Of a stretch of DNA of 32,000 bases, positions 3,788 to 24,928 are shown one piece after another. The notes beneath the pieces are model-generated. The model was given only the letters and a program-made list of their open reading frames with translations. It had not been told where the DNA came from and did no database searches. Numbering within the stretch: position 1 is the stretch's first letter; every line of letters starts with the position of its first letter. The position numbers and the translations under genes were made by a program. Source of the stretch: Christensenella minuta (GTDB lineage Bacteria > Bacillota > Clostridia > Christensenellales > Christensenellaceae); assembly GCF_003628755.1 (NCBI RefSeq), contig NZ_CP029256.1:111585-143584 (forward strand), given 5' to 3'.

Positions 3788-3805
3788 ATTGACCGGTCAG
3801 TACAG
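3788..3805. promoter_or_regulatory. Imperfect palindrome related to the 3031-3052 operator (autoregulatory TetR site candidate)
   Basis: ATTGACCGGTCAGTACAG shares the GTCAGTAC / GTACTGAC half-site. It lies between a putative minus-strand promoter (TTGCTA at plus 3833-3838, 17 nt, TATAAA at plus 3810-3815) and the TetR RBS. Confidence 0.45.
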
Positions 3806-3854
3806 TTTCTTTATACCCTATTCGCAGGCAAATAGCAAGAAGAAAAGAATGGGA

Positions 3855-3883
3855 TTGAAAAACAGGAAAAAGAGGTATACAAT
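3855..3883 (+). promoter_or_regulatory. Putative promoter for the MBL-hydrolase / rlmH unit
   Basis: TTGAAA (3855-3860), a 17-nt spacer, then TACAAT (3878-3883). It is divergent from the TetR promoter. Confidence 0.45.
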
Positions 3884-3917
3884 GATTTGTATTGGAACAG
3901 ATAGAAAGGCACAACAT

Positions 3918-6955: not shown

Positions 6956-8011
6956 TCAGATTTGGACGTAACGCTTCAACTCCTCTTTGCTGGCCGCCCG
7001 GTCGAGGGCAGCCTCCATAGTAATTGTACCGTCCTTCACCAGCCGCGCAAGATACATATCGAGGCAGATCATTCCCGTCCGCGTGTTCGTCTGCAATACG
7101 GAGGCGATCTGGAAGGTCTTGCCCTCGCGGACAAGGTTTGCCACAGCGTCGTTCACCAGCATAATCTCAAAAGCCGGAACGCGTCCTGAACCGTCCGCGC
7201 GGGGGATCAGCGTCTGCGTGATGACGGCCCTAAGGACCGTCGCCAGCTGCGTGCGCACCTGTTGCTGCTGGTAAGGCGGAAACACGTCGATAATCCTGTC
7301 GATGGTCTTGGCCGCGCCGATGGTATGCAGAGTAGACATCACCAGGTGTCCGGTCTCCGCCGCGGTAATGGCGGAGCTGATGGTCTCGAGGTCGCGCATT
7401 TCCCCCACAAGGATCACGTCCGGGTCCTCGCGCAGGGCGCTCCTGAGCGCGGAAGAAAAGCTCCTTGCGTCGCGCCCGATCTCGCGCTGGTTGACCATGC
7501 TCTTTTTGCTCGCGTGCATATATTCTACCGGGTCCTCAAGCGTCAGGATGTGGCAGCTGCGTTTTTCGTTCACCGCGTCGATCATCGCCGCGAGCGTGGT
7601 GGATTTACCGCTTCCGGTCGGCCCGGTCACCAGAACAAGGCCGCGCGGGTAATCCGCAATTTCCGCAAAGATGGAAGGCAGGTTCAGTTCGCCGATGGTC
7701 GGAATATCCTTTTGCAGCAGGCGGACGGCGATGCCAATCTCGCCCCGCTGGCGGAAGATATTGACCCTTTGCCGCTCCCCGGACGGTGTCTGGTACGAAA
7801 AATCGACGTCCCCGTCCTCCGGGCTGCCGCTGCCGCCGCTTTTTTGCAGCATCTCCCGCGCGATTTCGGCAACTGTCTGCGGGGTAAATACGGGCCTGCC
7901 CGAAAGTCGCTTCAATTCGCCGTTTTTACGCACGATCGGTGGCTCGCCGCAGGCGATATGGATGTCCGAACAGTCCATCTCGCGGGCCATGCCAATCAAT
8001 TCGTCTATCAT
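6956..8011 (-). CDS. pilT: Type IV pilus retraction ATPase PilT
   Basis: 351 aa. MIDELIGMAREMDCSDIHIACGEPPIVRKNGELKRL..., Walker A GPTGSGKSTTLAAMID, LTLEDPVEY, ILVGEMRDLETI and AAETGHLVMSTLHT are all PilT/PilU-family hallmarks. It lacks the N-terminal extension seen in PilB. Confidence 0.95.
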   Translation of the reverse strand: MIDELIGMAREMDCSDIHIACGEPPIVRKNGELKRLSGRPVFTPQTVAEIAREMLQKSGGSGSPEDGDVDFSYQTPSGERQRVNIFRQRGEIGIAVRLLQKDIPTIGELNLPSIFAEIADYPRGLVLVTGPTGSGKSTTLAAMIDAVNEKRSCHILTLEDPVEYMHASKKSMVNQREIGRDARSFSSALRSALREDPDVILVGEMRDLETISSAITAAETGHLVMSTLHTIGAAKTIDRIIDVFPPYQQQQVRTQLATVLRAVITQTLIPRADGSGRVPAFEIMLVNDAVANLVREGKTFQIASVLQTNTRTGMICLDMYLARLVKDGTITMEAALDRAASKEELKRYVQI

Positions 8012-9855: not shown

Positions 9856-9921
9856 ATGGAACAGGACAAAAGAGGCCGGATGCCGTCCCTGCTGCACGCA
9901 TCCGCCCGGGGGAGGAACCGC

Positions 9922-10686
9922 ATGCAACTTATACTCGTCGTATCTTATATTTTTTTATTCGTTCTGGGGCTTATAATCGGCAGCTTCCTGAACGTGTGTA
10001 TCTACCGGATTCCGAGGGGCGTCTCCGTCGCTTCCGGCCGTTCGGTCTGCCCGGGCTGCGGAAGTATGATCCACGGGTATGATAATATCCCTGTCTTAAG
10101 CTACCTGCTCCTGCGCGGGAAGTGCAGGAGCTGCGGCGCGCGCATTTCACCGCGCTATCCGTTGGTAGAGCTGCTCACGGCAGGATGCTTCCTGCTGTGC
10201 GGGGTCCGCTATGGCATTTCCATAGAAACCGTTCTGTTCTGCGCCTTTTCCGCCGTCCTGGTCGCCGTCGCCTTTATCGACATAGATACGCAGGAGATTC
10301 CGGACAGGTTCCACTTCATTATCCTCGGACTCGGCATCGCGGCCCTGTTTCTGGTTCCGGAGGTCGGCTGGATTTCCCGCTTGGTGGGCGCGGCCTGCAT
10401 CAGTGTTCCCATGCTCGTGATTGCCTTGGCGACGGACGGCTTCGGCATAGGCGACGTCAAACTGATGGCGGTCAGCGGCTTCCTGCTCGGATGGAAAAAC
10501 ATTGTTTTTGCCGCCCTCGCCGGCGCGGTGCTGGCCGCTGTCTGCGCGCTCGTCCTGATCGCCCTGAAGAGAAAAACCAAAAAAGACAAAATTGCGTTCG
10601 GTCCCTATCTTGCCATCGCGCTGTTTACCGCGGCGCTCTTCGGCGATACGATCGTCAGCGCCTACCTGTCCCTGTTCTCGCTCTGA
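9922..10686 (+). CDS. pilD: Prepilin peptidase / N-methyltransferase (A24 family)
   Basis: MQLILVVSYIFLFVLGLIIGSFLNVCIYRIP..CPGCGSMI...GKCRSCGARISPRYPLVELLT (two CxxC pairs). The catalytic Asp contexts are FIDIDTQEIPD and GFGIGDVKLM. ATG at 9922 follows GGGGGAGG (9908-9915). The track start at 9856 adds an implausible basic extension. Confidence 0.9.
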   Translation: MQLILVVSYIFLFVLGLIIGSFLNVCIYRIPRGVSVASGRSVCPGCGSMIHGYDNIPVLSYLLLRGKCRSCGARISPRYPLVELLTAGCFLLCGVRYGISIETVLFCAFSAVLVAVAFIDIDTQEIPDRFHFIILGLGIAALFLVPEVGWISRLVGAACISVPMLVIALATDGFGIGDVKLMAVSGFLLGWKNIVFAALAGAVLAAVCALVLIALKRKTKKDKIAFGPYLAIALFTAALFGDTIVSAYLSLFSL

Positions 10687-10689: not shown

Positions 10690-11346
10690 CTACGCCCCGG
10701 CTGCGTCCGCCGCGTCCTGCGCGGCCTGTTCCGCCTCTGTTGCTGCGGCGTCAAGCGCCGCGTCTCCCGGCTGTGCCACCGCGTAAAGCTCCGCCTGGAT
10801 AGAAGTTGCCGACGGCAGCTGCGGGTTTTCCATGTCGATATAAAATTCCGTGACCACCATATAAGGGAGTTCGTAAAGCTGCTCGAGGACGTTCGCCGTC
10901 TGCTCGAAATTTCCGGTTGCCGTGAACTGCAGCACCACGCGCGAAAGGAATGCGCTTTGCTCCTGTTCCGGCTGCTGGCTGCCGTCTGTGCCGTCGCCGG
11001 CCGCTTCATATTCCCCGATGCTCAGGGAATCCAACGTAACGCCCGCCTTGCTGCAAATGTCGCTCACCAGGTAATGGATGTCGTAATTTTTCATTGCGGG
11101 CGGGATCAGCTCCTCGTTTTCCGCATACCGTTCCTCGATCTCGGCAAGCGCCGTCTCGAGCGCCGGTTTCGCGGCAAGCCGCGTCTCCATTTCCATCCGG
11201 GAAGCCTCGAGCACCGCCAGTGTGTCTGCCTTTCCGGTATTTTGCTGCATAACCGGGAAAATAAGCAGCACAAAGGGGACAACAGCCACCAGGATCACCA
11301 GCAGGACGATTAGCAATACCTTTTCGCGTTTCTGTAATTTTTTCAT
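10690..11346 (-). CDS. pilO: Type IV pilus assembly protein PilO-like
   Basis: 218 aa. Short basic N-terminus, a single TM (VLLIVLLVILVAVVPFVLLIFPV), a coiled-coil segment, then a globular C-terminal part. It sits after pilM-pilN, and its ATG overlaps the pilN stop (ATGA at 11343-11346). Confidence 0.7.
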   Translation of the reverse strand: MKKLQKREKVLLIVLLVILVAVVPFVLLIFPVMQQNTGKADTLAVLEASRMEMETRLAAKPALETALAEIEERYAENEELIPPAMKNYDIHYLVSDICSKAGVTLDSLSIGEYEAAGDGTDGSQQPEQEQSAFLSRVVLQFTATGNFEQTANVLEQLYELPYMVVTEFYIDMENPQLPSATSIQAELYAVAQPGDAALDAAATEAEQAAQDAADAAGA

Positions 11347-11918
11347 TCTGCTGCGCCTCCTTCCGGAAGGACGCAGGCCACGGAGAATACGTACCCCTCC
11401 TCAGGCGTTCCCTGAAAACCGGGATAACCTACTTCCCGGAAATAATCCAGCCGATCAAGCGCCTGCACGAAATCGGCGGGGGGCAGGTTGTCCGAAGTCC
11501 TGCATTCGATGGTAAGGGCCGCCTTGCCGAGCGCAAGCCCGGTGATGGTTACGCGTTCGGGTTTTACGGATACGATTTTGCTGTAAACGGCGCCGCTGTA
11601 CTGGGACGAAGCGGCAAGCGCGTCCTGCGCGGCCCCCGCCGCTTCGTCGTATTGCGCATATCCCGAAATCTGCGATTGAATTTCGTTCACTTCCTGTAAT
11701 TCAAGGGCATGGTCCGCGATATACTGGTCTGCGATTGCGATCTGCGTATCGAGCATGCTTCCGCGCGCCGTCGCCAGGAAATATCCTCCGCCCACGCACG
11801 CCGCGAGGACGATGAACACAAGTACGAGTATAAAGCCGGAGCTTACGGATTTTACGCTCGTCGGCGCGGCTTTTCTGTTTTGAAACATATTTACGGTCGT
11901 TTTCAAATTCCTGTTCAT
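11343..11918 (-). CDS. pilN: Type IV pilus assembly protein PilN-like
   Basis: 191 aa, starting at the ATG at 11918-11916: MNRNLKTTVNMFQNRKAAPTSVKSVSSGFILVLVFIVLAACVGGGYFL.... This gives a short cytoplasmic tail, one TM and an extracellular domain. The ATG overlaps the pilM stop (ATGA). The longer 343-aa track ORF is an out-of-context extension into pilM. Confidence 0.7.
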   Translation of the reverse strand: MNRNLKTTVNMFQNRKAAPTSVKSVSSGFILVLVFIVLAACVGGGYFLATARGSMLDTQIAIADQYIADHALELQEVNEIQSQISGYAQYDEAAGAAQDALAASSQYSGAVYSKIVSVKPERVTITGLALGKAALTIECRTSDNLPPADFVQALDRLDYFREVGYPGFQGTPEEGYVFSVACVLPEGGAAE

Positions 11919-12838
11919 TTTTCCAGCAGCGCCCCCGTTGCATATGCGTATTGATGGAATAAAAATCCGCTGGGCGCGGATACCGCGGCCGGGCGGGGCA
12001 GTAGGGAAACCGGCAGCCCCAGCGCGGCGGAAATACCGCCGGCCATCTCTTCGCTTGCGGTGTCGCCGAAAATAAAAATCGAATCGCACGCCCGGCCGGG
12101 GTATTTGATGGATTGATATTGCATCATTTTGGAAATATTCTGCGTAGCCGCCTCCATTGCTGCGGAAACGTCGTAACGGTGTCCGGCAGAGTCGGAAAAC
12201 GCTTGTTTGCCTGGCATCACCACATCCGAACGGGTCAGGGAAATATTGGGCTGGGCGAGCAAGGTAACGTGGATACGCGAACTGCCCACGTTCGCGGCGA
12301 TGATATCGCCGGATGAAAAACCGTTTCCCAGGTGCTGCAGTTGATATAGGCAGTGTTGCGCCACTGTGTAGCAATACGGTTTTTTCCCGGCAAGGGAAAG
12401 AATTTCCGCGACGGATTCCACAAGGGAACGCCTTGCGAGATAGGCCTGCACCCGGCAGAATGTGCTGCCGTCCTGAGGGAATACCTCCAGGATCGTATAA
12501 TCCAGGATGGAATCGTCCGAAGTCTGCGATTTATAAAGCTCCCCCTGCACGATGTTGCGCATAGCGATCGGATTTTTTTCATAAGGCAGCACGAATTCGT
12601 TGGAAATCACGCTGCTCTTCGATACCAACACGGTTGCCCGGCTGCCGGAAAAACCGGAAGAAAGAAGCCCGCGCACAGCGTCCGCCACAGCCCTCTGGTC
12701 TGCGGCCCCGTCCGCGTCCATATACCCCGGAAGGGGAACGCTGGCCGCGTGGTCCACGGAAATTTTCCCGCCGGAAACCTTCCCGTTTACGGCGCGGATA
12801 TAAAGATTTGTAAAGTCTAAAGCGATCAATCGGTTCAC
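11915..12838 (-). CDS. pilM: Type IV pilus assembly protein PilM (actin-like ATPase fold)
   Basis: VNRLIALDFTNLYIRAVNGKVSGGKISVDHAASVPLP... has a typical PilM N-terminus, and the gene sits in the pilC-pilM-pilN-pilO order. The preferred start is GTG at 12838, after GGAGGCGCAGGAGAG. The track start at 12904 would add 22 basic residues. Confidence 0.8.
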   Translation of the reverse strand: MNRLIALDFTNLYIRAVNGKVSGGKISVDHAASVPLPGYMDADGAADQRAVADAVRGLLSSGFSGSRATVLVSKSSVISNEFVLPYEKNPIAMRNIVQGELYKSQTSDDSILDYTILEVFPQDGSTFCRVQAYLARRSLVESVAEILSLAGKKPYCYTVAQHCLYQLQHLGNGFSSGDIIAANVGSSRIHVTLLAQPNISLTRSDVVMPGKQAFSDSAGHRYDVSAAMEAATQNISKMMQYQSIKYPGRACDSIFIFGDTASEEMAGGISAALGLPVSLLPRPAAVSAPSGFLFHQYAYATGALLEK

Positions 12839-12932
12839 CTCTCCTGCGCCTCCGTTGCCGGAAACGCGCCGTCCCACCTCGGCGGAACGGCTTTTGCGAC
12901 GCACCGGGCCGGCCCTTCCGCGGGGAAGAAGC

Positions 12933-14129
12933 CTACAGCATGCTCGAATACATCGAATATATAGGCAGCATCACAGCTGCCAGCACAATCGTTATAATAA
13001 CAGCCAGCACGATCAGCATCACCGGCTCCAAAATAGAAATCATCCGGTTGATGGCGTTTTCGGATTCCGTGTTATAGTAATCCGAAATACTGGCAAGGAT
13101 ACGGTCAAGGCTGCCCGATTCCTCCCCGATACGCACCATGGAAGGAAGCAGCCGGTCGAATACGTTCGCCCGTTCGATGGCCGACGAAAGGGATTCGCCC
13201 ATGCTGACGTCCTGCATCAGCGAAGTAAACAGCCGGTCGATATACAGGTTGCCGAGGACGTTCGAGGACAGCCGCAGCGATGTAATCAGCGGGATGCCGC
13301 TCGCATACAGGATCGACATAGAACGCGCAAAACGCGCGGAATATACGGTGCGGTTCATTTTCCCCGTAATGGGTATGCGCAGCTTCATACGGTCGAGCAC
13401 GTAACGGAAGGAGGGCATACGCGCGGAATTCAAAAACAAAACGGCGGCCGCAGCGATCGCGAGGATGATCCACATCCAGTAATTCACCATGAAACCGCTC
13501 ACACTCATGACAAACTCTGTAATCGGGGGGATTTCAGCATTCTGGAACATGGTCATCATATTCGGAAGCACAAAAGTAAAGAGCAGGATAATCACACCCA
13601 CCGAAACGACAAGCAAAATCGTCGGATAGATCGTTGCCGATTTGATCTTATGCATCAGCTTGTTCTCATTTTCATAGTGGCCCGCAAGCGTCAAAAGAAT
13701 GGAATCGAGGTTGCCGCTCGTTTCACCGGATTCGATCATGTTGGTAAGGAAAGGCGGGAAAGACTGCCCCTCGAGCCGCATCGCCTGCGAGAGGGACATC
13801 CCCCTCTGGATGCTTTCATAGACGGAAAGGTATAATTCGCGGATTGCGGGCGTCTCCGCCGTCTGGTAGAGCACCTCGAAAGCCCCCGTCATGCTCAGCC
13901 CGGATTCCATCATCGTGCCCATTTTCCGGCAGAAAACGATAAGCTCCCTGGTTTTCATCTTGTGGAGGCGCCGCCGCGCCTGCTGCGCGTCCGCGTCCTC
14001 GCTGTAGGAAAGGCAATAAAGCCCCTGCTCGCGAAGGGAAGCGTAAAAGGACGGGATGCCGTCCGCCGTAAGGATGCCCTTTACTGTTTTGCCCTGAGCG
14101 TCGCGGGCGGTATATCGAAACTGACTCAA
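12933..14129 (-). CDS. pilC: Type IV pilus platform protein PilC (GspF family)
   Basis: 398 aa. MSQFRYTARDAQGKTVKGILTADG... is a typical GspF/PilC N-terminus. It contains two T2SF repeats with three TM segments (e.g. ATIYPTILLVVSVGVIILLFTFVLP, ILEPVMLIVLAVIITIVLAAVMLPIY). TTG start. Confidence 0.95.
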   Translation of the reverse strand: MSQFRYTARDAQGKTVKGILTADGIPSFYASLREQGLYCLSYSEDADAQQARRRLHKMKTRELIVFCRKMGTMMESGLSMTGAFEVLYQTAETPAIRELYLSVYESIQRGMSLSQAMRLEGQSFPPFLTNMIESGETSGNLDSILLTLAGHYENENKLMHKIKSATIYPTILLVVSVGVIILLFTFVLPNMMTMFQNAEIPPITEFVMSVSGFMVNYWMWIILAIAAAAVLFLNSARMPSFRYVLDRMKLRIPITGKMNRTVYSARFARSMSILYASGIPLITSLRLSSNVLGNLYIDRLFTSLMQDVSMGESLSSAIERANVFDRLLPSMVRIGEESGSLDRILASISDYYNTESENAINRMISILEPVMLIVLAVIITIVLAAVMLPIYSMYSSML

Positions 14130-14296: not shown

Positions 14297-14305
14297 TGGT
14301 ATACT
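14297..14305 (+). promoter_or_regulatory. Extended -10 element (TGgTATACT) for the giant-pilin operon
   Basis: It lies at the right edge of a 160-bp AT-rich island shared with the divergent pilC operon. The same TGGTATACT occurs at the ogg promoter. This predicts a leader of about 135 nt. Confidence 0.45.
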
Positions 14306-14447
14306 GGATTAGTCGGGGATTGTATTTTGACTGGGCGGTCAAAGCGGCATAAATCAAAGAACGGCTTTGCGGGCGCAAAGAGGGAATGTGTTTTGCCGTG
14401 CACCGTGCAGGAGAGGGAATTAATTTTCTTGCGGAGGGAGCCTGTTC

Positions 14448-17400
14448 GTGGTTTTAACGAAAGGAAAAAGCAAACTGGCTTTTACGCTGGTAGAACTCGT
14501 TGTCACCATTGCGATTATCGGAGTGCTGGCGGGAATATTGATCCCGTCGATTTTTGGTTACATCAAAATGGCCAAAATGGAAGGGCTCAATAACAACGCC
14601 CGTACGGTTTTTCTGGCGGCGCAGAACTACCTGACAGGCTGGACGGGCGACGGGAACGACGCGGCGGCGCTTGATCCGGATGGAGCGCCGGTAGACCTTA
14701 AAAAGATACTGCCGGAAGTCCCGCAAAAAGAAATGGACGAAAACGGCGGCAATATCAGACACCTCGCGCTCGCGCGCATGGATTCAGATGGGGAAAAACG
14801 GCAAAGCAGGCTCTACCAGCTCCTCTCCGGTTACATTTCAGATCAGCTCTTATTGGAAAAATCGATCCTCCTCGAGTATAACGCGAAGACGGGGCAGGTG
14901 CGCTCCGCGTTTGTTTCGGAAGAACCGTTTTTAGACTACGCCGGGGAGGACGGCGATCCGACGAATGTGAACGACCGCAGGGAGGATGCCCTGTGGGAAA
15001 AAGAGCAGGGATATTACGGGGTGGATTATACGGGCAGCCTGCCCGAACGCGTGGAAGACCAGACTCTTTCCGTACGTATCGTGAACAGCGGCGGCATGCT
15101 GGGCGTGGAGTGCGACATTGCGGATTATTTGAACGCAAAGGAAAACACCCAATACGAATTCCGCGTATTTTCCTTGGAGGACCCGAAAAAAGGATATACG
15201 TTCACCTTCGACCCCAACGCGGTCACCGACCGGGCGTCCGCCGGTGGAACGGTATGGGCGGTCACGTACAACAACGCAAAAACCGCGATCGAAAAAGCGG
15301 ATCCTGCCAGGCCCATGGTCTATAAAACGGAGGTGGACCCGGACGGGACCGGGCACATCGTATGGATTCTCGATGTGTTCAGTGAATGGAACGCTTATAA
15401 TTCCACGCGGGACATGGGCATAGCGAATTGCTATCCCGACCTTCCGGTCGGCATGCTCGATGCGCAGGTTACGGCACGGGCGGCGGATACGGGCGGCGAG
15501 CTTGCCGTAAAGCAGTCCGGGAATATGGAGCACAGCTATTTTGCCGGGCAGGAAAAGGGGGCGGACGGAAGCCTTACCTATACGCTCCGTGACGCGCGGC
15601 AGTTAAACAATGTGCGCTATATGACCAACGAAAAAGGGTATATCACAGGCGCCTTCAAACAGATCGGCGATATCAGTATGCGGGCGTTTTTCGATCAAAC
15701 GGGCGACCGGGTCCTGGCCGAGGGAGCGCGGGTCACCATTGCGCCGCTGGGCATATTTGCCGGAACCTACAGCGCGGAGGACGCAAAGGCTGCGGTGGGA
15801 GAAGACGGAAACTATAAAATAACCGAGCTCATGGCCGCGTCCGTGTCCGGACAGGCCGGGCTGTTTGAGGAAAACCGGGGAAGCGTTCAAAACCTCACGG
15901 TCGAGGGCGCGCAGGTGGGAACGGAAACCGTTCCCGTGAGGACTGCGGGCGGCGTCATTGCGGGAACGAACGCAAACGTGGGCGTACTCCAAAACTGCAA
16001 TGTCTCGGGAAGCGTCACGGGCGGGGCGTCGGTAGGCGGCCTCGCGGGCGTGAACAACGGGAAGATCATTGGCTGCAAGAGCGGCGTATTCCCCGCGCCC
16101 GGGACGGCGAACGCCGTACAGTATACCTATAAAAATACTTATTTCTACACGGAAAAAGTGCTTCGGAACCAGAAACCGGTCGAGATCGAAAAGGAATTGC
16201 CGTGCGTGCTTTCTTCCGGGCAAGCCCGTGAAAAGGGTGCCGCTGTCGGCGGCGTTACGGGCACGAATGCGGGAACAGTCTCTCAGTGCATCAATATTTC
16301 ACAAATAGAGAACCACTCGGAAAACGGACGGGCGGGGGGCCTTGTGGGTCTTAATGCCGGAGGCGTGCTCAAGGAGAGCTATAATGCGGGCCGGGTCGTT
16401 GCGGAAGGAGACGGCGGCAGCGTTGGCGGCGCCGCAGGAGAAAACGGCGCGCGCATTGAAAACTGCTATAACACAGGACGGATCAATCTAAAGGACGGCG
16501 GCAAAAATGATCCCGGGGACGACATCCCGCTTGCAAACGGCATGATCGGCGGCGTAGCCGGCCGCAATACGCAGGACGGGCAGCTTGCGGACTGCTATGC
16601 GATCAACTATATCGGCTATAACGAGTGGCAGGAAAACACTGTTGCGGGCGGTATCGTCGGACGCGACGAAACAACGGACCCTGATTTTATCACCAACTGC
16701 AGTTTTATTCCCGGTGAAAACCTGACGAATGCGCTCGGCGTTTCCATCCTTGGCGCGCGCGGAGAACTGCGGGCCGTCTACCGGCCGGAAGACCTTGCGG
16801 ACTACTATACGGATGAGCCGTGGCGCAGGGACGACCCTTCCGTCGCGGATACTTTTTACTACAGGTATCCGTATTTATACGGCCTCAAAAGCGAGCAGGC
16901 CACTCCGTGGGAACAGATTACGCCGGCAGTACCAGCGCTCATGGCGCGTATGCAAAACGGCGAACTGCTGACGGCGGAATGGACCAATGGGGCCTCTGCC
17001 CTGCAAAAGGGAATTTCCGTGGAATTACTGGATGAAAGCGGCCATGTGCTCGACACCATCGGGGATATCAGCCTGCCTGCGCTGCGCGGTATAACATCCG
17101 TGCGCGAAGCCCTGCAAAATCCTCTGACCGGGAATTCAGGCAGGGAGTACCCCGTTTTTTACGAAGACGATACTTATAAAATTGTGTTGGACGGCATTTT
17201 GATGGACGATCTGCAAAACACGATCGAAAATCATTTCCGTGACCGGCAAGGCATTGGCGTGCGCGTGACCTATCCGGGAGAAGAAACAGTTGTTTCCAAC
17301 CTGGAAAATCCGCTGTACGCGGGGACGGCGGATGAGGGAAATCAGATCGCGAATGCGCGGCATCTATATAATGTACGCTACCGCAGCGGCGAAAATTTTG

Positions 17401-20156
17401 TGCAGACGGGAAATATCGGACTGCATAATTTCGACGGCAGCGAAGCGGTGATCCCGCCTATAGGCGAACTCACGGGCAGCTATGACGGCGGGGGTTATTC
17501 CATTTCCCAATTGCTGGTCGCCGCAAAAACCGGCGACGCGGGCTTGTTTGCGCAGGTCGGCGAGACGGCAGCGGTCAGGGACCTTGCTTTAGAATCGGGT
17601 GCGGTCATGGGCCGCGGAAACGTCGGCGGCATTGCCGGCGTGAACTATGGGACGGTAAGCGGCTGTACGGTCAAGCCGGGCGTAAGCGTTGCGGGCAGTG
17701 CCGGCAGCGCGGGAGAACAAAAGAATATCGGCGGCGTCGCCGGGCTGAACGCCGGGTCCGCTGCCGGTGCGGACAGGCGTCCCGTAACGCCTGCCGATAA
17801 TTACCTGCATGCCGAAAACGGCGCATGGCAGGGCAGCAAAGATAAACGGATTCTGTATACGGCCGGCGGCGCGCTGCCGGCTCAGTTCAACGAACTCTAT
17901 CTTGCGTTCCAAACGCTTGACCTGACGGAAACGAATACGCCGCCTGGCTGGGAAAAAAGGCCGGACCAGCTGGGCGTCGCGGTGACGATAGAAGACACGG
18001 TCTATCCGCTGTACCGGCGCAGTGCGGGGAGAATAACCGCCCTTACGGTGGCGGACCTCCAGGGCATGGGTGAAAAAGCGGCGCAGGGATATTATATCCG
18101 CTGCTATTTGACCTACGACGGTGCCGGATGGGCGCTGGAAGCGGACGGGCTGACCGACCAGCCCGGTTATTCCGCATATTCAGGCGAAATCATCGGTTGC
18201 ATCAACGAAGCGTCCCTCGCGCAGACGGCGGACACAGCGAATGCGGGAGACAGTCTCGGCGGTGTCGCTGGGGCCAACGAAAGCATCATCCGGGACTGTG
18301 TGAGCGGTACGGTTCCAGCGGCGCCTTCCATGACGCTGCAGGAGGTCCTTGCCAACGCGACGCGCTATACCGCGGTAAACGCAGAGACGGTGGGCGGCGT
18401 TACGGGCGGCAATACGGGCGAAATCACCGGATGCGTCAATGCGGCGCAGGTTTCTTCGGCTGCAGGCAGTCTCGCGGGCGGGATCGCGGGCAGCAGCGTA
18501 AACCTAGTCGACCGGTGCTACAACGCCGGGACCGTGCAAATGACGGGGGCCAGCGGCAGCGTAGGCGGCGTTTTAGGAAAAAACACCGGTACGGTTACCA
18601 ATTGCTATAATACGGGCCGCGTCAATGTGGAAAGCGTGAAAAAGTCCTCCGTAACGCTTGCGGACGGCAATATCGGCGGCGTTATCGGCCGAAACGGGGA
18701 AAGTGCCGCAGTGAATGCGTGCTATAACATCGGCTATGTAGGCGACGCAGCGGGCAGCGGCTCGGCGGGCGGCGTCATCGGCCTCAATAAAAATACGTCG
18801 CCGTCCGCTGCGCGGGTGCAGAATATCTACACGCTCGCGGAAGCGGCGCTCAATAAAAACGCCGTCGGCGCCGGAACGGTAAGCGGCGTACAGGATGAGC
18901 CGGTCACGAAGGATGCGCTCATTGCGGCACGTATCGGGACGGCGTTTACCGCGGATGCCGTCCCTGTGTCCGGCACCTATCTGTACCCGTATCCTTATCT
19001 GCGCGGCGCTTCCGCTGCGCAGCGCACCCCGTGGGAAGATACGACGCTGTCCGACGGCCTGAAGGGTTCGGGCACCTATGGCGATCCATACCAGGTTTGG
19101 AGCGCGGACGACCTGCAGCTCGTCGAACAGTACGACAGCAAAACAAACGACGCTTATTTCCAGCAAATGGAGGATATCGATATGCTGGGTGTAGGCTATC
19201 GGCCGATCGCCAGCTTCAAGGGTCATTTCGACGGGGCGGGACACATTATTTCAAACCTTACGCCGCTTATCGGAACGCTGGAAGGCGGCTCGGGAGATCC
19301 GGGGCGTTACGCGGGTGGGCTTATGCTCCGGTCCAATGGAAATGTCAGGAATGTCTGCCTGGTCAATCCGCAAATTGTGCTTTCCTACCGTGAGCCAAAG
19401 GATGCGTGGGGAAATATAAACCAGTTATATTTGGGCGGAATTGTGGGCATGACAAGCGGCCGGGTGGAAAACTGTATGGTGATCGGCGGTTCAATTACCG
19501 CGGTGATCGAAAGAGATGCTTTCGATGTGACCGCTTATCTGGGCGGCGCGGTAGGATATAACACGGGCGGGGCGGTTGATTATTGCGGCTGTACGGCGGA
19601 TATTATACTGGTAAACCAGGGCACGAAACTGAAAGGATCTTATCTGGGCGGTCTTTCCGGACGCAGCTATGGAAGCGGCGTGAGCCACTCCTATTTTGCG
19701 GGTACGCTCGGGAGCGTCGAAACATCCGTCCTTAAAGGAGGCATTGCGGGGCTCAATGAAGGTGCGGTTAATTCCTGCGTAATTCTCGAGGGCAGCGCAC
19801 AGCAGGCGGCAGGATCGGGCAATGCGGCTTCACCGGTGGAATTTTGCAGCGGACGTACTATGGCTTCAAATAGTATCCTCGGCATTCTGGGCGGCGGCGT
19901 GTGGCATTTTGTCCCGGAAAGCGGGTATCCGTATCCGCTTTCCGTCGATGTCACGGCGGTTCTGCCCGCGGCGTCCTTCAATACGCTTCCGGCAGAGGAG
20001 CCCTCGGCCCGGGAAACGGCCCCCAGCCCGTCAGGAGGCGCGGAGCCTTCGTCCCAAGAGACGGCGGAGCCGGAACTGTCTCCGTCCTTGCAGCCGGAAC
20101 TGGATGCGGCAAAAAGCAGTGCCGGATCGGAACAGACGGGCGGTGAGGCGGCATGA
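14448..20156 (+). CDS. Giant (1902 aa) prepilin-type N-terminal domain protein with about 20 GLUG-type repeats in three modules; candidate modular minor pilin / pilus-borne adhesin
   Basis: GTG at 14448 lies 7 nt after GGAGGGAG. The N-terminus MVLTKGKSKLA/FTLVELVVTIAIIGVLAGILIPSIFGY is a class III signal with Glu+5. The downstream part carries repeated GG(I/V/L)(A/V/T)G.N.G.(I/V)..C.N.G motifs, e.g. VGGLAGVNNGKIIGC, VGGAAGENGARIENCYNTGRI, VGGVLGKNTGTVTNCYNTGRV and LGGIVGMTSGRVENCMVIGG. These are typical of the GLUG motif family. There is no second TM segment and no LPxTG, and the C-terminal tail is rich in P, S, E and A. Confidence 0.9.
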   Translation: MVLTKGKSKLAFTLVELVVTIAIIGVLAGILIPSIFGYIKMAKMEGLNNNARTVFLAAQNYLTGWTGDGNDAAALDPDGAPVDLKKILPEVPQKEMDENGGNIRHLALARMDSDGEKRQSRLYQLLSGYISDQLLLEKSILLEYNAKTGQVRSAFVSEEPFLDYAGEDGDPTNVNDRREDALWEKEQGYYGVDYTGSLPERVEDQTLSVRIVNSGGMLGVECDIADYLNAKENTQYEFRVFSLEDPKKGYTFTFDPNAVTDRASAGGTVWAVTYNNAKTAIEKADPARPMVYKTEVDPDGTGHIVWILDVFSEWNAYNSTRDMGIANCYPDLPVGMLDAQVTARAADTGGELAVKQSGNMEHSYFAGQEKGADGSLTYTLRDARQLNNVRYMTNEKGYITGAFKQIGDISMRAFFDQTGDRVLAEGARVTIAPLGIFAGTYSAEDAKAAVGEDGNYKITELMAASVSGQAGLFEENRGSVQNLTVEGAQVGTETVPVRTAGGVIAGTNANVGVLQNCNVSGSVTGGASVGGLAGVNNGKIIGCKSGVFPAPGTANAVQYTYKNTYFYTEKVLRNQKPVEIEKELPCVLSSGQAREKGAAVGGVTGTNAGTVSQCINISQIENHSENGRAGGLVGLNAGGVLKESYNAGRVVAEGDGGSVGGAAGENGARIENCYNTGRINLKDGGKNDPGDDIPLANGMIGGVAGRNTQDGQLADCYAINYIGYNEWQENTVAGGIVGRDETTDPDFITNCSFIPGENLTNALGVSILGARGELRAVYRPEDLADYYTDEPWRRDDPSVADTFYYRYPYLYGLKSEQATPWEQITPAVPALMARMQNGELLTAEWTNGASALQKGISVELLDESGHVLDTIGDISLPALRGITSVREALQNPLTGNSGREYPVFYEDDTYKIVLDGILMDDLQNTIENHFRDRQGIGVRVTYPGEETVVSNLENPLYAGTADEGNQIANARHLYNVRYRSGENFVQTGNIGLHNFDGSEAVIPPIGELTGSYDGGGYSISQLLVAAKTGDAGLFAQVGETAAVRDLALESGAVMGRGNVGGIAGVNYGTVSGCTVKPGVSVAGSAGSAGEQKNIGGVAGLNAGSAAGADRRPVTPADNYLHAENGAWQGSKDKRILYTAGGALPAQFNELYLAFQTLDLTETNTPPGWEKRPDQLGVAVTIEDTVYPLYRRSAGRITALTVADLQGMGEKAAQGYYIRCYLTYDGAGWALEADGLTDQPGYSAYSGEIIGCINEASLAQTADTANAGDSLGGVAGANESIIRDCVSGTVPAAPSMTLQEVLANATRYTAVNAETVGGVTGGNTGEITGCVNAAQVSSAAGSLAGGIAGSSVNLVDRCYNAGTVQMTGASGSVGGVLGKNTGTVTNCYNTGRVNVESVKKSSVTLADGNIGGVIGRNGESAAVNACYNIGYVGDAAGSGSAGGVIGLNKNTSPSAARVQNIYTLAEAALNKNAVGAGTVSGVQDEPVTKDALIAARIGTAFTADAVPVSGTYLYPYPYLRGASAAQRTPWEDTTLSDGLKGSGTYGDPYQVWSADDLQLVEQYDSKTNDAYFQQMEDIDMLGVGYRPIASFKGHFDGAGHIISNLTPLIGTLEGGSGDPGRYAGGLMLRSNGNVRNVCLVNPQIVLSYREPKDAWGNINQLYLGGIVGMTSGRVENCMVIGGSITAVIERDAFDVTAYLGGAVGYNTGGAVDYCGCTADIILVNQGTKLKGSYLGGLSGRSYGSGVSHSYFAGTLGSVETSVLKGGIAGLNEGAVNSCVILEGSAQQAAGSGNAASPVEFCSGRTMASNSILGILGGGVWHFVPESGYPYPLSVDVTAVLPAASFNTLPAEEPSARETAPSPSGGAEPSSQETAEPELSPSLQPELDAAKSSAGSEQTGGEAA

Positions 20157-20713
20157 ACGGGAAGCGCAGGGCAAAAGAAGGGGCGTCGATGATTATCGCC
20201 CTGATCCTGCTGATCGTTTTCTTGGTGATCGGCACGTCCGTGCTCACAGCCGCGTCGGCGTCGGTCGGCAGAGCTGCGGCGCTGCGGGAGGAAAAGCAGC
20301 TTTATTATTTCGCGCGGTCGGTTGCCTCCACCTTCACGGAAGGAATGACGGACCTGTGGGGCACCGTATGGGGCCCCGTCAATAAAATGCTCGAAGCCGA
20401 CCGGGAAGGGGAAAAGACGGAATACAGCTACCATTGCACGGTTTCCGTGCAAAACCTGTCGCAGGACGGCGTGCCCGACGATTTTTTGTCGGAAGACGGT
20501 ACCCGGCTCAATATGGAGCCGGTCGCACTGACCGCGGAGGGTGTCCGCTTTGACGAAAACGGGACGCTGTATTCGGTCGGGAAACTGACCGCGGCGTTCC
20601 ATGTGCAATATAAAAGCCGGGACTATCAGCTTGTCGCGGAGTATACTTATCAAAAACCGGAGGATGGAGATGCGGAAACGGGCTGGACGCTTGTCAAATA
20701 CGGCAGGCCGTAA
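20153..20713 (+). CDS. PilX/GspK-like minor pseudopilin (no Glu+5)
   Basis: MNGKRRAKEGASMIIALILLIVFLVIGTSVLTAASASVGRA resembles the PilX N-terminal domain (basic stretch, G-A/S, then a hydrophobic helix). The ATG overlaps the upstream stop (ATGA at 20153-20156). The alternative ATG at 20189 is less consistent with the family. Confidence 0.65.
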   Translation: MNGKRRAKEGASMIIALILLIVFLVIGTSVLTAASASVGRAAALREEKQLYYFARSVASTFTEGMTDLWGTVWGPVNKMLEADREGEKTEYSYHCTVSVQNLSQDGVPDDFLSEDGTRLNMEPVALTAEGVRFDENGTLYSVGKLTAAFHVQYKSRDYQLVAEYTYQKPEDGDAETGWTLVKYGRP

Positions 20714-21020
20714 AACCGGGAATCGGTGGAAAAGGGGCGAGCTGCTGGTCGAGACGATCGTGGCGATCGCTGTTTTTGTAGTGGTCATGGTCGCGGTTTC
20801 GGCGATGGTGGCCGTCTCCTATCATATGCTCAATGCATCGCGGGAGCAATACGGACAGATACGCCAAAGATGCTCGGATATCGAAACCATGCAGGACGTG
20901 GGCGGCTACGAAAGCTCCGTACTGGAATTCCGGTTTGATGACCAAAACGATTCACAGACGAACGCCGCCATCCGGGTATATGGGGAAGGCCCGGTCACGT
21001 TCTTTACGCTGGGGAAATAA
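20670..21020 (+). CDS. Minor pilin-like protein with atypical G/ELLVE cleavage motif
   Basis: MRKRAGRLSNTAGRKTGNRWKRG/ELLVETIVAIAVFVVVMVAVSAMV has Gly-1, Glu+5 and a hydrophobic helix. GGAGG (20659-20663) lies 6 nt upstream of ATG 20670. It overlaps the preceding gene by 44 nt. Confidence 0.6.
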   Translation: MRKRAGRLSNTAGRKTGNRWKRGELLVETIVAIAVFVVVMVAVSAMVAVSYHMLNASREQYGQIRQRCSDIETMQDVGGYESSVLEFRFDDQNDSQTNAAIRVYGEGPVTFFTLGK

Positions 21021-21545
21021 ATGAGACGCAGGAACCTGTTACGGAAACTGAAGAAAGGCTTCACACTGGTCGAAATGGTGATCGCGATCGCTGTATTTGC
21101 GGTTTTTTCCGCCGGAACGGCGGCTGTTTTGGTGCCGGTGCTGAATGTTTACAGCGGCGCGGTCCAACTGTCCGACGCGCAGCTTGTCGCCGCCAACATA
21201 CTTGATGCGGTGCAAAACGAGCTTGTTTATGCGCGTCCGGATCGGGAACCCGAAATTTCGGAGGACGGTTCGCTGATCGAGTTTAACGGCGTTTATCCAA
21301 ACACGAGGATTACGTCGGCTCCCGCGGGGGAGACGCCGGGTTACCTGTATATTGCGCGCAGTGCGCAGGCAAACTTCGTGCCCTGCTATGACGAGCGCTA
21401 TTACCGCAGCGACACCGTAGAGGTGTTTTTTGCCAAAGCCGGGGAATCCCATGCCCTTACGGTCACGGTCACGGTGAAAGACAGGAACGGCCGCGCGGTC
21501 TATACGGCGAAGCAAAGCGTCACGCCGCTTGCTTGGGTTTCCTGA
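21021..21545 (+). CDS. Minor pilin (prepilin-type N-terminal cleavage/methylation domain)
   Basis: MRRRNLLRKLKKG/FTLVEMVIAIAVFAVFSAGTAAVLVPV carries the canonical motif. The ATG directly abuts the upstream TAA (21018-21023). Confidence 0.85.
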   Translation: MRRRNLLRKLKKGFTLVEMVIAIAVFAVFSAGTAAVLVPVLNVYSGAVQLSDAQLVAANILDAVQNELVYARPDREPEISEDGSLIEFNGVYPNTRITSAPAGETPGYLYIARSAQANFVPCYDERYYRSDTVEVFFAKAGESHALTVTVTVKDRNGRAVYTAKQSVTPLAWVS

Positions 21546-21654: not shown

Positions 21655-21682
21655 GGGCCGCGCGCAATATTGCGCGCGGCCC
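21655..21682 (+). terminator. GC-rich perfect 28-nt palindrome; probable terminator of the minor-pilin operon
   Basis: GGGCCGCGCGCAAT/ATTGCGCGCGGCCC, followed by TGATTCTTGTT. It lies 110 nt after the stop at 21545 and overlaps the -35 region of the glnS promoter. Confidence 0.55.
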
Positions 21683-21734: not shown

Positions 21735-23381
21735 ATGGCGGAAAACGAGTCAAAGAATTTTATCGAAGAGATTGTTGGGCGAGATCTTGCAGACGGAAAA
21801 GTGGATCGTGTTGTAACGCGGTTCCCACCCGAGCCGAACGGCTACCTGCATCTTGGCCACGCGAAATCCATCTGCCTCAATTTCGGGCTGGCGGAAAAGT
21901 TCGGCGGAAAGTGCAACCTGCGCTTTGACGATACCAATCCCGCCCGTGAAGATGTAGAATATATAAACGCCATCAAACGGGATATTGAATGGTTGGGTTT
22001 TGAATGGGCGGCCGAAGCCTATGGCTCGGATTATTTCGGATTCATGTATGAATGTGCGGAGCGCCTGATCGAAAAGGGGCTTGCCTATGTGGACGACCTC
22101 ACGCCGGAGGAAATGCGTGCATACCGCGGCACGCTCACGGAGCCGGGGAGGGAAAGCCCATACCGTGGAAGGACGCCCGAAGAGAATATGGACCTGTTCC
22201 GCCGTATGAAAGCGGGCGAATTTGAAGACGGCACAAAGGTGCTGCGCGCGAAGATCGACATGAGTTCCCCAAACCTTAACATGCGTGACCCCGCCATTTA
22301 CCGCATCGTAAAAGCGCCTCATCACCGTACGGGCGAAAAGTGGGTCATCTATCCGATGTACGATTTTGCGCATCCGCTCGAGGATGCCTGTGAGGGCGTG
22401 ACGCATTCGGTGTGCACGATGGAATTTGAAGACCACCGCCCGCTGTACGACTGGTTCATAGAAAACTGCGAGTGTAAGAACGTTCCGCACCAGTATGAGT
22501 TCGCGCGTCTCAACCTGACGCATACGGTTATGAGCAAACGGTACCTGAAAAAGCTGGTCGACGACGGCGTGGTCTACGGATGGGACGACCCGCGTATGCC
22601 CACGCTTTCCGGCGTGCGCCGCAGGGGATATACGCCCGCCGCGATCCGCGATTTCTGCGAACGTATCGGCGTTGCCAAGGCAGTATCCGAGGTAGACGTG
22701 CGCCTGCTCGAGCATTGCGTGCGCGAAGACCTCAACGCCCATGCGCCCCGCGTAATGGGGGTGCTCCGGCCTCTTAAGCTCACAATAGAAAACTATCCTG
22801 AGGGAAAAACGGAGCTGCTGGCGGCGGAAGACCTGCCGGGCGGGGAAAGCACTCATGAAGTGCCGTTCTCGAAGCACCTTTTTATCGAGCAGGACGATTT
22901 CCTCGAGGTAAAGCCCAACAATAAATATTTCCGTCTGTATGTGGGTGGCGAAGTACGCCTCAAGAATGCCTATATCATCAAGTGCGAACGTGTGGTGAAG
23001 GACGCAGACGGCAGCATCGCGGAAGTGGTCTGCACCTACGACGAAACAACGAAATCCGGCGGCGAGAACAGCGGACGGAAGGTCAAAGGCACGCTGCATT
23101 GGGTGGAGCGCGATACTGCGGTAAAGGCACAGGTGCGGCTGCTGGATTATCTGTTCACCGAGTCCGCAGACGGTACGTGCGTGGCGAACCCTGACTCGCT
23201 GACCGTCCTCGACGGCGCGGTGATCGAGCCGCATATCAGGACTGCGGAAAAGGGCAGCCGCTTCCAGTTCATGCGGCAGGGCTATTTCTGCATCGATACA
23301 AAAGATACGGCGGACGGCAAACTGGTATTCAACCAGATCGTGAGCCTGAAGGACAGCTTTGCCAAAACAATGAAAAAGTAA
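21735..23381 (+). CDS. glnS: Glutamine--tRNA ligase
   Basis: 548 aa. [44 protein letters not shown] contains the HIGH region, and [11 protein letters not shown] contains the KMSKS region. It has the typical GlnRS length and a C-terminal anticodon-binding domain. Confidence 0.97.
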
Positions 23382-23470
23382 CGCGCGCCGTATGCGGCGG
23401 CAGGGCGGAGCGGCCTATAAGGTCCCTGCCAGAAGGAAGGAACAGACCAGGAATCGAAAGGAATGGTATT

Positions 23471-24928
23471 ATGGAGATAAGAACAAGATTCGCGCCCAGC
23501 CCGACGGGCTACCTGCACATCGGCGGCCTGCGGACGGCGCTGTACGCATACCTGTTTGCCAAAAAGAACGGCGGGAAATTCATCCTGCGCATCGAGGATA
23601 CGGACAGGGAACGCCTTGTAGACGAGGCAAGCGAGATCATCTACCGCACGCTGAAAGATACGGGACTCATCTACGACGAAGGCCCGGATGTTGGCGGGGA
23701 GTATGGCCCCTATATCCAGTCCGAGCGCAAGGATATCTACCGTGATTACGCGGAAGAGCTCGTCCGGCGCGGCGCGGCTTATTATTGCTTTTGCACCAAA
23801 GAGCGCCTTTCCGGCCTGCGCACGGAGTGTGAGGCAAAAGGAGAACAATTCAAATACGATAAGCATTGCCTCAGCCTCACGCCGGAGGAAGTGCGGGCAA
23901 AGGTCGCTGCGGGCGAGCCGTATGTCATCCGCCAGAATATCCCAACGGAGGGGGAAACGACGTACAGCGATATGGTCTACGGCGACGTCACGGTCCCAAA
24001 CAGCGATATGGAGGATAACATCCTCCTGAAATCGGACGGCTACCCGACTTATAACCTCGCAAACGTGGTGGACGACCATCTGATGAAGATTACGCATGTC
24101 ATCCGCGGGATCGAGTATCTTTCCTCTACCCCCAAATATAACCTGCTCTATGAAGCGATGGAGTGGGACGTACCGGAATATATCCACCTGCCCCCGGTCA
24201 TGCGGGATAAACACGCGAAGCTTTCCAAGCGCCACGGGGACGCTTCCTATGAAGACTTTGTGGAGAAAGGGTTCCTCTCTGGTGCGATCCTCAACTATAT
24301 CGCGCTTCTTGGCTGGAGTCCTTCGGACAATCAGGAGATTTTCACGCTGCCTGAGCTTGTAGATGCGTTCGACGTATCGGGCATCAGTAAAAGCCCGGCG
24401 ATCTTTGATGTGGAAAAACTGAAATGGATGAACGCGGAATATATCCGCGCGCTTTCGGAAGAACAGTTTATTGAAATGGCAATGCCGTATTTCGGGCAGG
24501 TGATCGACCCGGAAAAGTTCGACCTGCCGCTCATCACCCGGCTGATCCAGCCGCGCCTCGAAGTGATGACAGAGATACCCGATAAGCTCCGGTTCCTTTC
24601 CAAGCTGCCGGATTACGATATCAGCCTTTACAGCCATAAAAAAATGAAAGTCACGCCGGAAAGCGCGCTCGTATACCTTGAAGCCGCCTATCCCGTCCTG
24701 CGGGACCTCCCGGATTTCACGGAGACGATGATCCACGATTCCATGATGGAGCTTGTGGAAAAATTGGGCGTGAAAAACGGGCAGCTGCTCTATCCGCTGC
24801 GCGTCGCGGTATCCGGTACGCCCGTCACCCCGGGCGGCGCGATCGAGATCGCCTATCTCCTTGGCAAGCACGAGACGCTCTCGCGCCTCGAAACGGGAAT
24901 TGCCAAGCTCAAAGATGCGCTCCAATGA
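23471..24928 (+). CDS. gltX: Glutamate--tRNA ligase
   Basis: 485 aa. MEIRTRFAPSPTGYLHIGGLRTALYAYLFAKKNGGKFILRIEDTDRER contains the HIGH region, and KLSKRHGD contains the KMSKS region. Confidence 0.97.
   Translation: MEIRTRFAPSPTGYLHIGGLRTALYAYLFAKKNGGKFILRIEDTDRERLVDEASEIIYRTLKDTGLIYDEGPDVGGEYGPYIQSERKDIYRDYAEELVRRGAAYYCFCTKERLSGLRTECEAKGEQFKYDKHCLSLTPEEVRAKVAAGEPYVIRQNIPTEGETTYSDMVYGDVTVPNSDMEDNILLKSDGYPTYNLANVVDDHLMKITHVIRGIEYLSSTPKYNLLYEAMEWDVPEYIHLPPVMRDKHAKLSKRHGDASYEDFVEKGFLSGAILNYIALLGWSPSDNQEIFTLPELVDAFDVSGISKSPAIFDVEKLKWMNAEYIRALSEEQFIEMAMPYFGQVIDPEKFDLPLITRLIQPRLEVMTEIPDKLRFLSKLPDYDISLYSHKKMKVTPESALVYLEAAYPVLRDLPDFTETMIHDSMMELVEKLGVKNGQLLYPLRVAVSGTPVTPGGAIEIAYLLGKHETLSRLETGIAKLKDALQ

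Follow-up and report, generated by a model that had tools for sequence, protein, structure and literature searches.

The window analysed here is a 32,000-nucleotide stretch of the Christensenella minuta genome (NCBI RefSeq assembly GCF_003628755.1, contig NZ_CP029256.1, positions 111,585 to 143,584 of the forward strand), and all positions below are counted from its first letter. It carries a type IV pilus (T4P) locus in which one gene, divergent from pilC, encodes a protein of 1902 residues, referred to below as the giant. This protein joins a type IV prepilin N-terminus to a long array of GLUG repeats, and a first-pass annotation, made from the letters and their open reading frames (ORFs), had described it as a candidate giant modular pilin that displays an adhesin. 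The gene and its parts are as follows.

14448-20156 (+): giant modular prepilin gene, 1902 residues encoded from a GTG start (ORF list, translation, Pfam and NCBIfam matches).
14433-14439 (+): ribosome-binding site GGAGGGA, 8 nt 5' of the GTG, read from the sequence.
14448-14480 (+): leader peptide MVLTKGKSKLA, covering residues 1-11; PilD is predicted to cut between Ala11 and Phe12 (profile alignments and invariance in orthologues).
14481-15062 (+): pilin module, residues 12-205, with helix α1 (14-67, containing Glu16), the αβ-loop and strands 103-108, 139-145, 151-157 and 187-191 (AlphaFold and PilE1 alignment).
15063-15593 (+): β-rich domain 1, residues 206-382, all-β by DSSP on the predicted model.
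15594-16937 (+): GLUG module 1, residues 383-830, an N-terminal cap and 7 coils of a β-solenoid, ending with the motif YRYPYLYG...TPWE.
16938-17351 (+): β-rich domain 2, residues 831-968, forming the spacer that separates module 1 from module 2; it has no GLUG coils, and strands 832-844 are seen where the model ends.
17352-19067 (+): GLUG module 2, residues 969-1540, 2 + 6 coils with a variable insert between the two groups.
17775-18242 (+): module 2 insert, about 156 residues (1110-1265), 35-44% conserved among orthologues.
19068-19955 (+): GLUG module 3, residues 1541-1836, 4 coils (coil profile and BLASTP).
19956-20153 (+): tail, residues 1837-1902, acidic and of low complexity, with a high content of P, S, E and A (composition, alignment).

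After the predicted cleavage the mature giant has 1891 residues, a mass of 197.4 kDa and a pI of 4.6. Its N-terminus, MVLTKGKSKLA/FTLVELVVTIAIIGVLAGILIP, has the characteristic arrangement of a class III signal, in which a short hydrophilic leader ending in Gly or Ala is followed by about 21 hydrophobic residues and a Glu at position +5, here Glu16 of the precursor. Both Gly and Ala at position -1 lie within published definitions of prepilins (PMC8179133, PMC3244431). The signal, Glu+5 and hydrophobic helix of the first-pass annotation are borne out by two profiles: the score against Pfam N_methyl (PF07963) is 21.9 bits over residues 9-31 (cut-off 21.2) and that against TIGR02532 is 19.3 bits (cut-off 16.3). 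The margins are narrow for the giant alone, and relatives match as well (43/45 and 21/21). In the orthologue and wider-family profiles, Phe12 corresponds to residue 1 of the mature form of solved pilins. The best solved match of the N-terminal module is PilE1 of Streptococcus sanguinis (8pfb, E 1.9e-12), which covers α1 and the αβ-loop, mature residues 1-84. The motif KLA/FTLVE is unchanged in 4/4 orthologues and Glu5 is invariant among the relatives compared. The sole hydrophobic segment of the protein spans residues 14-32, with a Kyte-Doolittle peak of 2.79, while the next-best window reaches 1.2. Neither an LPxTG motif nor a C-terminal hydrophobic anchor is found in the sequence and hydropathy scan, as the first-pass annotation had stated, and Pfam finds no SLH domain. 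The giant does not, then, have the features of a sortase- or SLH-anchored adhesin of Gram-positive bacteria.

Beyond the helix, an AlphaFold (AF2) model of residues 1-845, built on an alignment of 44 family members, has a mean predicted local distance difference test (pLDDT) score of 78.3 and a predicted template modelling (pTM) score of 0.70. An earlier run with residues 1-385 and 5 sequences had a mean pLDDT of 52.6, and Foldseek on that model gave noise only. In the later model the N-terminal module has the topology of a pilin, with helix 14-67 followed by four β-strands at a pLDDT of 83-98 over residues 40-200, so that the pilin fold proposed to follow the helix is predicted. A low-confidence linker, residues 200-204, joins it to an all-β domain (208-380) within β-rich domain 1. 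This domain, with a pLDDT of 62-97, is probably a β-sandwich that serves as a spacer, and its fold matches are weak and of Ig-like or adhesin type only. The pilin module ends at about residue 195 and is followed by the linker, the β-domain and the GLUG solenoids, an arrangement that corresponds to the definition of modular pilins by Raynaud et al. (2021). The signal, the predicted fold and the partial profile alignment support the view that the giant has a genuine type IV pilin base.

The GLUG array makes up most of the remaining protein. Pfam Glug (PF07581), to which the entry IPR011493 presumably corresponds, scores 49.5 bits against the giant, with a cut-off of 20.5. A coil profile finds 18 firm coils and 1 marginal coil, distributed 7/8/4 over modules 1, 2 and 3, close to the figure of about 20 repeats given earlier. 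Module 1 is modelled from residue 383 onwards as a regular solenoid of short strands with a pLDDT above 90. It resembles 3n6z (BACOVA_03286, a 'putative IgA1 protease') in both sequence profile (E 2e-19) and fold (Foldseek E 1.9e-6, template modelling score 0.53 on the target), and the next Foldseek matches are the IgA1 proteases 7uvl, 6xja and 7uvk from S. pneumoniae and G. haemolysans. The repeats thus belong, by Pfam score and by fold match, to the GLUG β-solenoids, with a β-helix like that of 3n6z and of the NTD2 domain of IgA1 proteases. In those enzymes the NTD2 β-helix is a gate for substrate entry, with a gating or scaffold role and not a catalytic one (PMC9637739). GLUG solenoids also occur in IgA1 proteases and in surface proteins anchored by SLH domains or LPXTG; among GLUG proteins, SLH domains are present in P0005 and P0006.

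Modules 1 and 2 are clear paralogues, with 29.5% identity over 383 residues (BLASTP, E 6e-41). The tail has a composition of A13, S11, E10 and P9, which is 43 of its 66 residues (65%) and agrees with the tail of about 65 residues described at first. In one orthologue, P0003, module 3 is precisely absent and the P/S/E/A tail is kept. This suggests that modules are gained and lost as units while the tail is selectively retained, and module 3 appears to be dispensable.

The giant lies within a T4P locus and is followed by three small pilin-like genes.

5964-6380 (-): pilA, candidate major pilin of 138 residues, KKG/FTLIE (N_methyl 40.4 bits).
6956-8011 (-): pilT, retraction ATPase.
8025-9731 (-): pilB, extension ATPase (Pfam T2SSE and MshEN for pilB and pilT together).
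9856-10686 (+): pilD, prepilin peptidase (A24_N_bact and Peptidase_A24 domains, Pfam E 3.1e-33 and 2e-16).
10690-12904 (-): pilM, pilN and pilO-like genes of the alignment subcomplex (PilM_2, PilN and T2SSM matches).
12933-14129 (-): pilC, T2SSF platform protein, divergent from the operon of the giant (Pfam T2SSF, E 2.9e-57).
20153-20713 (+): minor-pilin-like gene 1, 186 residues, with a hydrophobic N-terminus without Glu5, GspK/PilX-like.
20664-21020 (+): minor-pilin-like gene 2, about 118 residues, start uncertain, RG/ELLVE and then a hydrophobic helix; weak prepilin matches.
21021-21545 (+): minor pilin gene 3, 174 residues, KKG/FTLVE (N_methyl 33.2 bits, TIGR02532 30.7 bits).
21655-21682 (+): GC-rich hairpin with a 12-bp stem, from a terminator-like scan, with a poor T-tail.

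All the T4P genes named in the first-pass annotation are confirmed by Pfam, and the set of pilA, pilT, pilB, pilD, pilO-like, pilN, pilM and pilC is complete. The pilN ORF (11343-12904, -; 343 residues) shares about 460 nt with pilM, and only residues 264-334 belong to the PilN domain. Since pilN of C. intestinihominis has 191 residues, the ORF is over-long and the true start is internal. The three small genes are present as first described, but only the third passes N_methyl and TIGR02532; the first has no Glu5 and the second matches weakly. The 186-residue protein scores 20.6 bits against PilX_N, under the cut-off, and resembles the N-terminus of GspK (E 0.014), while the 174-residue protein also has weak GspJ and GspI matches. 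These similarities of the small proteins to GspK, GspJ and GspI are N-terminal and weak (E 0.014 to 3.5e-5), and all fall under the cut-offs. Both pilA and the third minor pilin have Gly at position -1, where the giant has Ala (codons of Ala11-Phe12, 14478-14483). The hairpin is tentatively regarded as a possible terminator of the operon.

The giant and its three small partners recur elsewhere. The comparison loci L001-L004 come from C. intestinihominis, a Christensenella sp. metagenome-assembled genome (MAG; L002), a Lachnospiraceae MAG and a Roseburia MAG. All four, and L006, have a giant and three small pilin-like genes inside a T4P locus; synteny is kept in the C. intestinihominis and Christensenella sp. 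MAG loci, and the L006 relative is divergent from pilC, the same arrangement as in the window. In the Lachnospiraceae MAG, three genes of 187, 103 and 194 residues come next after a 2,962-residue member, and beyond them lie pilins, pilD, pilC, pilB and pilT. The Roseburia MAG has a 3,893-residue member and genes of 155, 116 and 182 residues in one T4P locus. When compared by phmmer with their positional counterparts in these two loci, the small proteins of the window give E-values of 2e-9 and 7e-6 (186 residues), 7e-5 (118 residues) and 5e-11 and 1.5e-10 (174 residues). Positional homologues of the 186- and 174-residue genes are found in L001-L004, and of the 118-residue gene in L001, L002 and L004. 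Judged from gene order and homology, the giant recurs as part of a four-gene cassette whose other members are three small minor pilins, including one without Glu5.

Directly after the cassette, the Christensenella sp. MAG has a 2,356-residue ORF (L002:17219-24289, +), which was considered as a second adhesin and rejected on account of its PAS-GGDEF-EAL-GAF domains, those of a cyclic di-GMP signalling protein. Its presence may hint that cyclic di-GMP controls the pilus of this lineage. Both the window and C. intestinihominis have glnS at this place instead.

A full-length search finds only four orthologues: an identical metagenomic copy, one in C. intestinihominis AF73-05CM02 (63% identity), one without module 3 (60%) and one in the Christensenella sp. 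MAG (48%), the last named 'type II secretion system protein' by NCBI. Four full-length orthologues and the synteny exclude a gene fusion, a pseudogene or an assembly artefact. The wider family emerges from a different search. A hidden Markov model (HMM) of the helix-less region 36-385, run exhaustively against 1.84 billion cluster representatives, matches 222 proteins with E ≤ 1e-3, 79 of them reaching E ≤ 1e-10, and its alignments nearly always start at about residue 36-40 of the matched protein. A word-index homology search with residues 1-381 had given helix-level matches to DUF1559 pilin-like proteins and fragments, and with the helix-less family profile it gave fragments only, so that the family was missed by this type of search and revealed by the exhaustive one.

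Family statistics refer to 151 sequences, which are the best 147 of the 222 matches and the four orthologues, some truncated sequences included. The canonical KG/FTLxE signal and hydrophobic helix are present in 130/151, and none of these 130 has a C-terminal LPxTG. Since the architecture is conserved in four orthologues and the signal in 130 of the 151 relatives, the combination is not due to chance. The 131 signal-bearing sequences have a median length of 1524 residues; 52 have at least 1902 residues, 22 have at least 3000 and the longest has 6,548. The giant is therefore not uniquely large, and it is the whole family, more than this one gene, that is remarkable. At least three GLUG-type motifs are found in 111/116 members of 700 residues or more, with a maximum of 58, and Pfam matches N_methyl in 43/45 and Glug in 22/45 of the shorter members. 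Named carriers belong to Christensenellales, to Roseburia and other Lachnospiraceae, to Oscillospiraceae and to other Bacillota MAGs, while most members are unnamed metagenomic sequences. Sources that name them use unspecific labels ('prepilin-type N-terminal cleavage/methylation domain-containing protein', 'pilus assembly FimT family protein'). These sequence comparisons place the giant in the middle of the size range of a sizeable, uncharacterised giant-pilin family in gut Clostridia.

Some members have distinctive surroundings. The 6,548-residue member (L007:9001-28647, +; signal GRAG/FTLLE) includes a cell-wall hydrolase domain of the NlpC/P60 type. Pilin-like genes surround it, and it adjoins another ORF of more than 3,877 residues and choline-binding proteins. 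P0165 of Oscillospiraceae (3,391 residues; L008:9001-19176, +) has faint FIVAR and Glug matches and is flanked by a his operon with toxin-antitoxin genes on one side and by a chemoreceptor gene on the other. On the contigs of P0010 (249 residues) and P0033 (830 residues), L005 and L006, every T4P gene is fragmented and pilB is in 2-4 pieces. Since all T4P genes are broken there, these assemblies appear to be ridden with frameshifts, and short members from such sources are probably artefactual truncations.

Different parts of the locus diverge at different rates. Between the window and C. intestinihominis, PilB, PilC, PilT, GlnS and GltX are 91-94% identical, while PilA is 62%, the giant 63% and the three small proteins 60-68% identical. 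The giant thus evolves with the exposed filament subunits and not with the machinery. By its housekeeping proteins, the window belongs to a Christensenella species that is near C. intestinihominis but not identical with it. Within it, the pilin base and the first β-domain are 75-77% identical, module 1 is 71%, modules 2 and 3 are 57-64%, and the module 2 insert and the tail are 38%. Such a gradient would be expected of a conserved assembly interface with variable, exposed distal parts that face a ligand or the immune system.

Other features of the window lie around these genes. The AT-rich intergenic region of about 320 nt separates the divergent giant and pilC genes. A possible extended -10 element, TGgTATACT, is present at 14297-14305 (+), about 140 nt 5' of the start of the giant, although a simple sigma-70 scan makes no call. 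No riboswitch or other Rfam family is found in the leader of the giant or anywhere in the window. Two tandem class I Glx-tRNA synthetases, glnS-like (548 residues) and gltX-like (485 residues), follow the cassette at 21735-24928 (+). A 480-residue ORF at 3213-4655 (-) has a TetR_N match only at residues 304-348, and is either over-extended or a TetR regulator with an unusual N-terminal extension of 300 residues. At 596-3019 (-) is an 807-residue membrane protein with ABC2_membrane_3 and DUF3533 matches (YhgE/Pip-like), whose central coiled region has weak tape-measure-like matches.

Several known systems share features with the giant, and each differs from it. The closest precedents are PilB, with a vWA module, and PilC, with a lectin module, which are tip-located modular minor pilins of S. 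sanguinis (PMC8179133, PMC9934059). They too are encoded in a T4P locus of a monoderm lineage, with a class III signal, Glu5 and a co-encoded partner pilin without Glu5, and they have a pilin module of about 180-200 residues, a short linker and a module that is not specific to T4P. In S. sanguinis, PilA, an I-like pilin without Glu5, nucleates a tip complex with the two modular pilins (PMC9934059). The giant differs in having three small partner pilins instead of PilA alone, and in having five serial domains (two β-sandwiches and three GLUG solenoids) and a disordered tail instead of a single vWA or lectin domain. It is also 4.2 times longer than PilB (1891 versus 454 processed residues), in keeping with the earlier remark that the characterised modular pilins are several-fold smaller. 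In the T4aP (type IVa pili) of diderms, the tip adhesin PilY1/PilC and PilHIJK (GspHIJK) likewise combine a large effector with four tip or priming subunits, one of them without Glu5. The giant cassette is probably a functional analogue of this set. The four genes are conserved together and the first small protein has no Glu5, although the I/J/K-type similarity of the small proteins consists of weak N-terminal matches. PilY1 is, however, a non-pilin with a C-terminal β-propeller, whereas the giant is itself a pilin and has no PilY1 domain among its Pfam matches. CofB/TcpB, ComZ (with a β-solenoid module) and GspK (PMC8179133) also join a pilin module to extra β-rich or solenoid domains with a predicted tip location, but the giant is several-fold larger, GLUG bears no relation to the domains added in these proteins, and they belong to other type IV filament classes and hosts.

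The concept of modular pilins is already established. Raynaud et al. (2021) defined them and listed more than 1,200 in 264 architectures, of which the most extreme multi-domain case has 860 residues and, unlike the giant, carries a different repeat. Their Dataset S1 includes 'IPR012902 - IPR011493' (6 proteins), which the text reads as an M26 peptidase module. The bare combination of N_methyl and IPR011493 is therefore already tabulated. That entry concerns the prepilin motif and IPR011493 in a single-copy, bimodular form, and the giant, multi-module versions, their shared head, the cassette and the absence of a protease site are not described. In the searchable literature, outside which most subscription journals lie, no description of GLUG pilins, giant prepilins or Christensenella T4P is found. 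Relative to that literature, the multi-module giants of 2-6.5 thousand residues, the family-specific pilin head and the set of three partner pilins appear to be new, as do the absence of a protease site and the distribution across gut Clostridia.

A mechanism may be outlined in which the giant is a PilD-processed modular minor pilin located at the pilus tip. The α1N helix would insert the prepilin into the membrane, as in prepilins generally, while the other approximately 1,870 residues would be exported and fold outside. PilD, encoded 4 kb away, would then cleave after Ala11 and methylate Phe12. By analogy with HIJK and with PilABC of S. sanguinis, the pilin module (residues 12-205) and the three small minor pilins would form a priming complex on the PilC/PilMNO platform. 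Since one small pilin lacks Glu5, that subunit is probably on top of the complex. Polymerisation of PilA beneath it, driven by PilB, would lift the complex to the tip of the pilus. The non-pilin part would then form an elongated acidic array in which a β-sandwich, a GLUG solenoid, a second β-sandwich, two further GLUG solenoids and a disordered tail follow one another. At 4.8 Å per coil, the three solenoids would make a rod of about 9 nm, to which the caps, β-domains and insert would add. The array might contact a ligand or extend the reach of the pilus, and retraction by PilT would transmit force for attachment or for cell-cell aggregation.

This tip-located minor pilin is the preferred reading, though confidence in it is only a little better than even, and some observations weigh against it. 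The residue at -1 is Ala in the giant and in all four Christensenella orthologues, while it is Gly in 125/131 signal-bearing relatives; with Ala, processing could be slower or regulated. The cell wall has to be passed by about 175 kDa of folded extracellular protein. P0165 is an orphan, encoded outside any T4P locus. Among relatives of GLUG, only the β-helix that gates the IgA1 proteases is characterised (PMC9637739), and an adhesive role is inferred. Globular proteins larger than about 25 kDa are reportedly stopped by the peptidoglycan mesh (bioRxiv 10.1101/2024.11.04.621531), and narrow solenoids placed end to end might ease the passage relative to a 175-kDa globule. The size of 197 kDa and the wall-passage problem lend some weight to a reading in which the giant is processed by PilD but not polymerised, its class III signal and α1N serving as a membrane anchor or export tag only. 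The GLUG array would in this case be tethered to the membrane and span the wall, or be pushed out or released by a piston-like action of the T4P or type II secretion kind. Export of non-pilins that depends on T4P machinery is reported in C. perfringens (bioRxiv 10.1101/2024.11.04.621531), and the isolated gene of P0165 would also fit. A mere anchor, however, is hard to reconcile with the conservation of the pilin head beyond the helix, since the globular head (75%) is the best-conserved part and defines the family of 222 clusters. Glu5 is moreover invariant, the gene is linked to three minor pilins of which one lacks Glu5, and the presence of PilT and of a normal major pilin in the locus would be expected of a retractile pilus. 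A non-polymerised giant is judged unlikely, although it is the main rival reading.

The remaining alternatives concern the function of the array rather than its assembly. The repetitive, rod-like architecture and the variable number of modules (module 3 lost in P0003, up to 58 GLUG motifs in relatives) would suit a structural fibre or matrix component, displayed on the pilus or the surface, whose rods extend reach or mediate homotypic flocculation without a dedicated ligand. Christensenella species do flocculate and enmesh M. smithii (PMC7002349), but that paper mentions neither pili nor adhesins, and in a scan of GTDB species representatives with two peptide patterns, a set that does not include the window's own genome, C. 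intestinihominis and one MAG are the only carriers of orthologues, and the species of the floc study yields none. The fast divergence of the distal parts fits pressure from a ligand or the immune system equally well, and a purely structural role seems rather improbable. Least credible by far is a pilus-displayed enzyme of the IgA1 protease type, as the InterPro M26 label used by Raynaud et al. would imply. Both sequence and fold show the GLUG modules to be homologues of 3n6z and of the NTD2 β-helix in M26 IgA1 proteases (6xja, 7uvk/7uvl), Peptidase_M26_N is matched in 1/45 relatives, and a gut bacterium would meet IgA; the shared β-helix is, however, a gating or scaffold domain in those enzymes (PMC9637739). 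Unlike them, the giant has no MD/CTD protease domain, no G5 domain and no LPXTG, and its β-helix is triplicated on a pilin. It has neither HExxH nor HxxEH and no Peptidase_M26_C or Peptidase_M26_N match in Pfam, and an HExxH string occurs in just 2/151 relatives. Since HExxH is absent from the giant, a protease identity is rejected. The annotation of the giant as a modular pilin is upheld by its signal, predicted fold, locus, cassette and divergence, while display on the pilus and an adhesin function are putative.

Characterised modular pilins carry one grafted domain of about 30-35 kDa, while members of the giant family carry at least 175 kDa, and several-fold more in some relatives. The gain of new functions by simple type IV filaments is at present explained by modular pilins, a model that the giant family stretches. 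The family raises the questions of how such a subunit is extracted from the membrane, where it sits in the filament and how it crosses the wall. A pilin with a peptidoglycan hydrolase, as in the 6,548-residue member, could bear on passage through the wall or on attack on other cells. As a tentative proposal, and one that may well prove wrong, the family would form a class of its own, widespread in gut Clostridia (Christensenellales, Lachnospiraceae and Oscillospiraceae), of 'mega-pilins' at the pilus tip with 0.8-6.5 thousand residues, in which a pilin is extended into a GLUG-solenoid fibre tens of nanometres long and, with its dedicated set of three pilins, replaces an effector of the PilY1 type. 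In Christensenella such a fibre could drive flocculation and co-aggregation with Methanobrevibacter, or could bind host IgA or mucus; the link from the giant to flocculation and to co-aggregation with M. smithii is speculative. The GLUG domain would gain a defined biological setting, and T4P are pointed to as a likely organelle of surface interaction in gut commensals that are abundant yet little studied, among them the health-associated Christensenellaceae.

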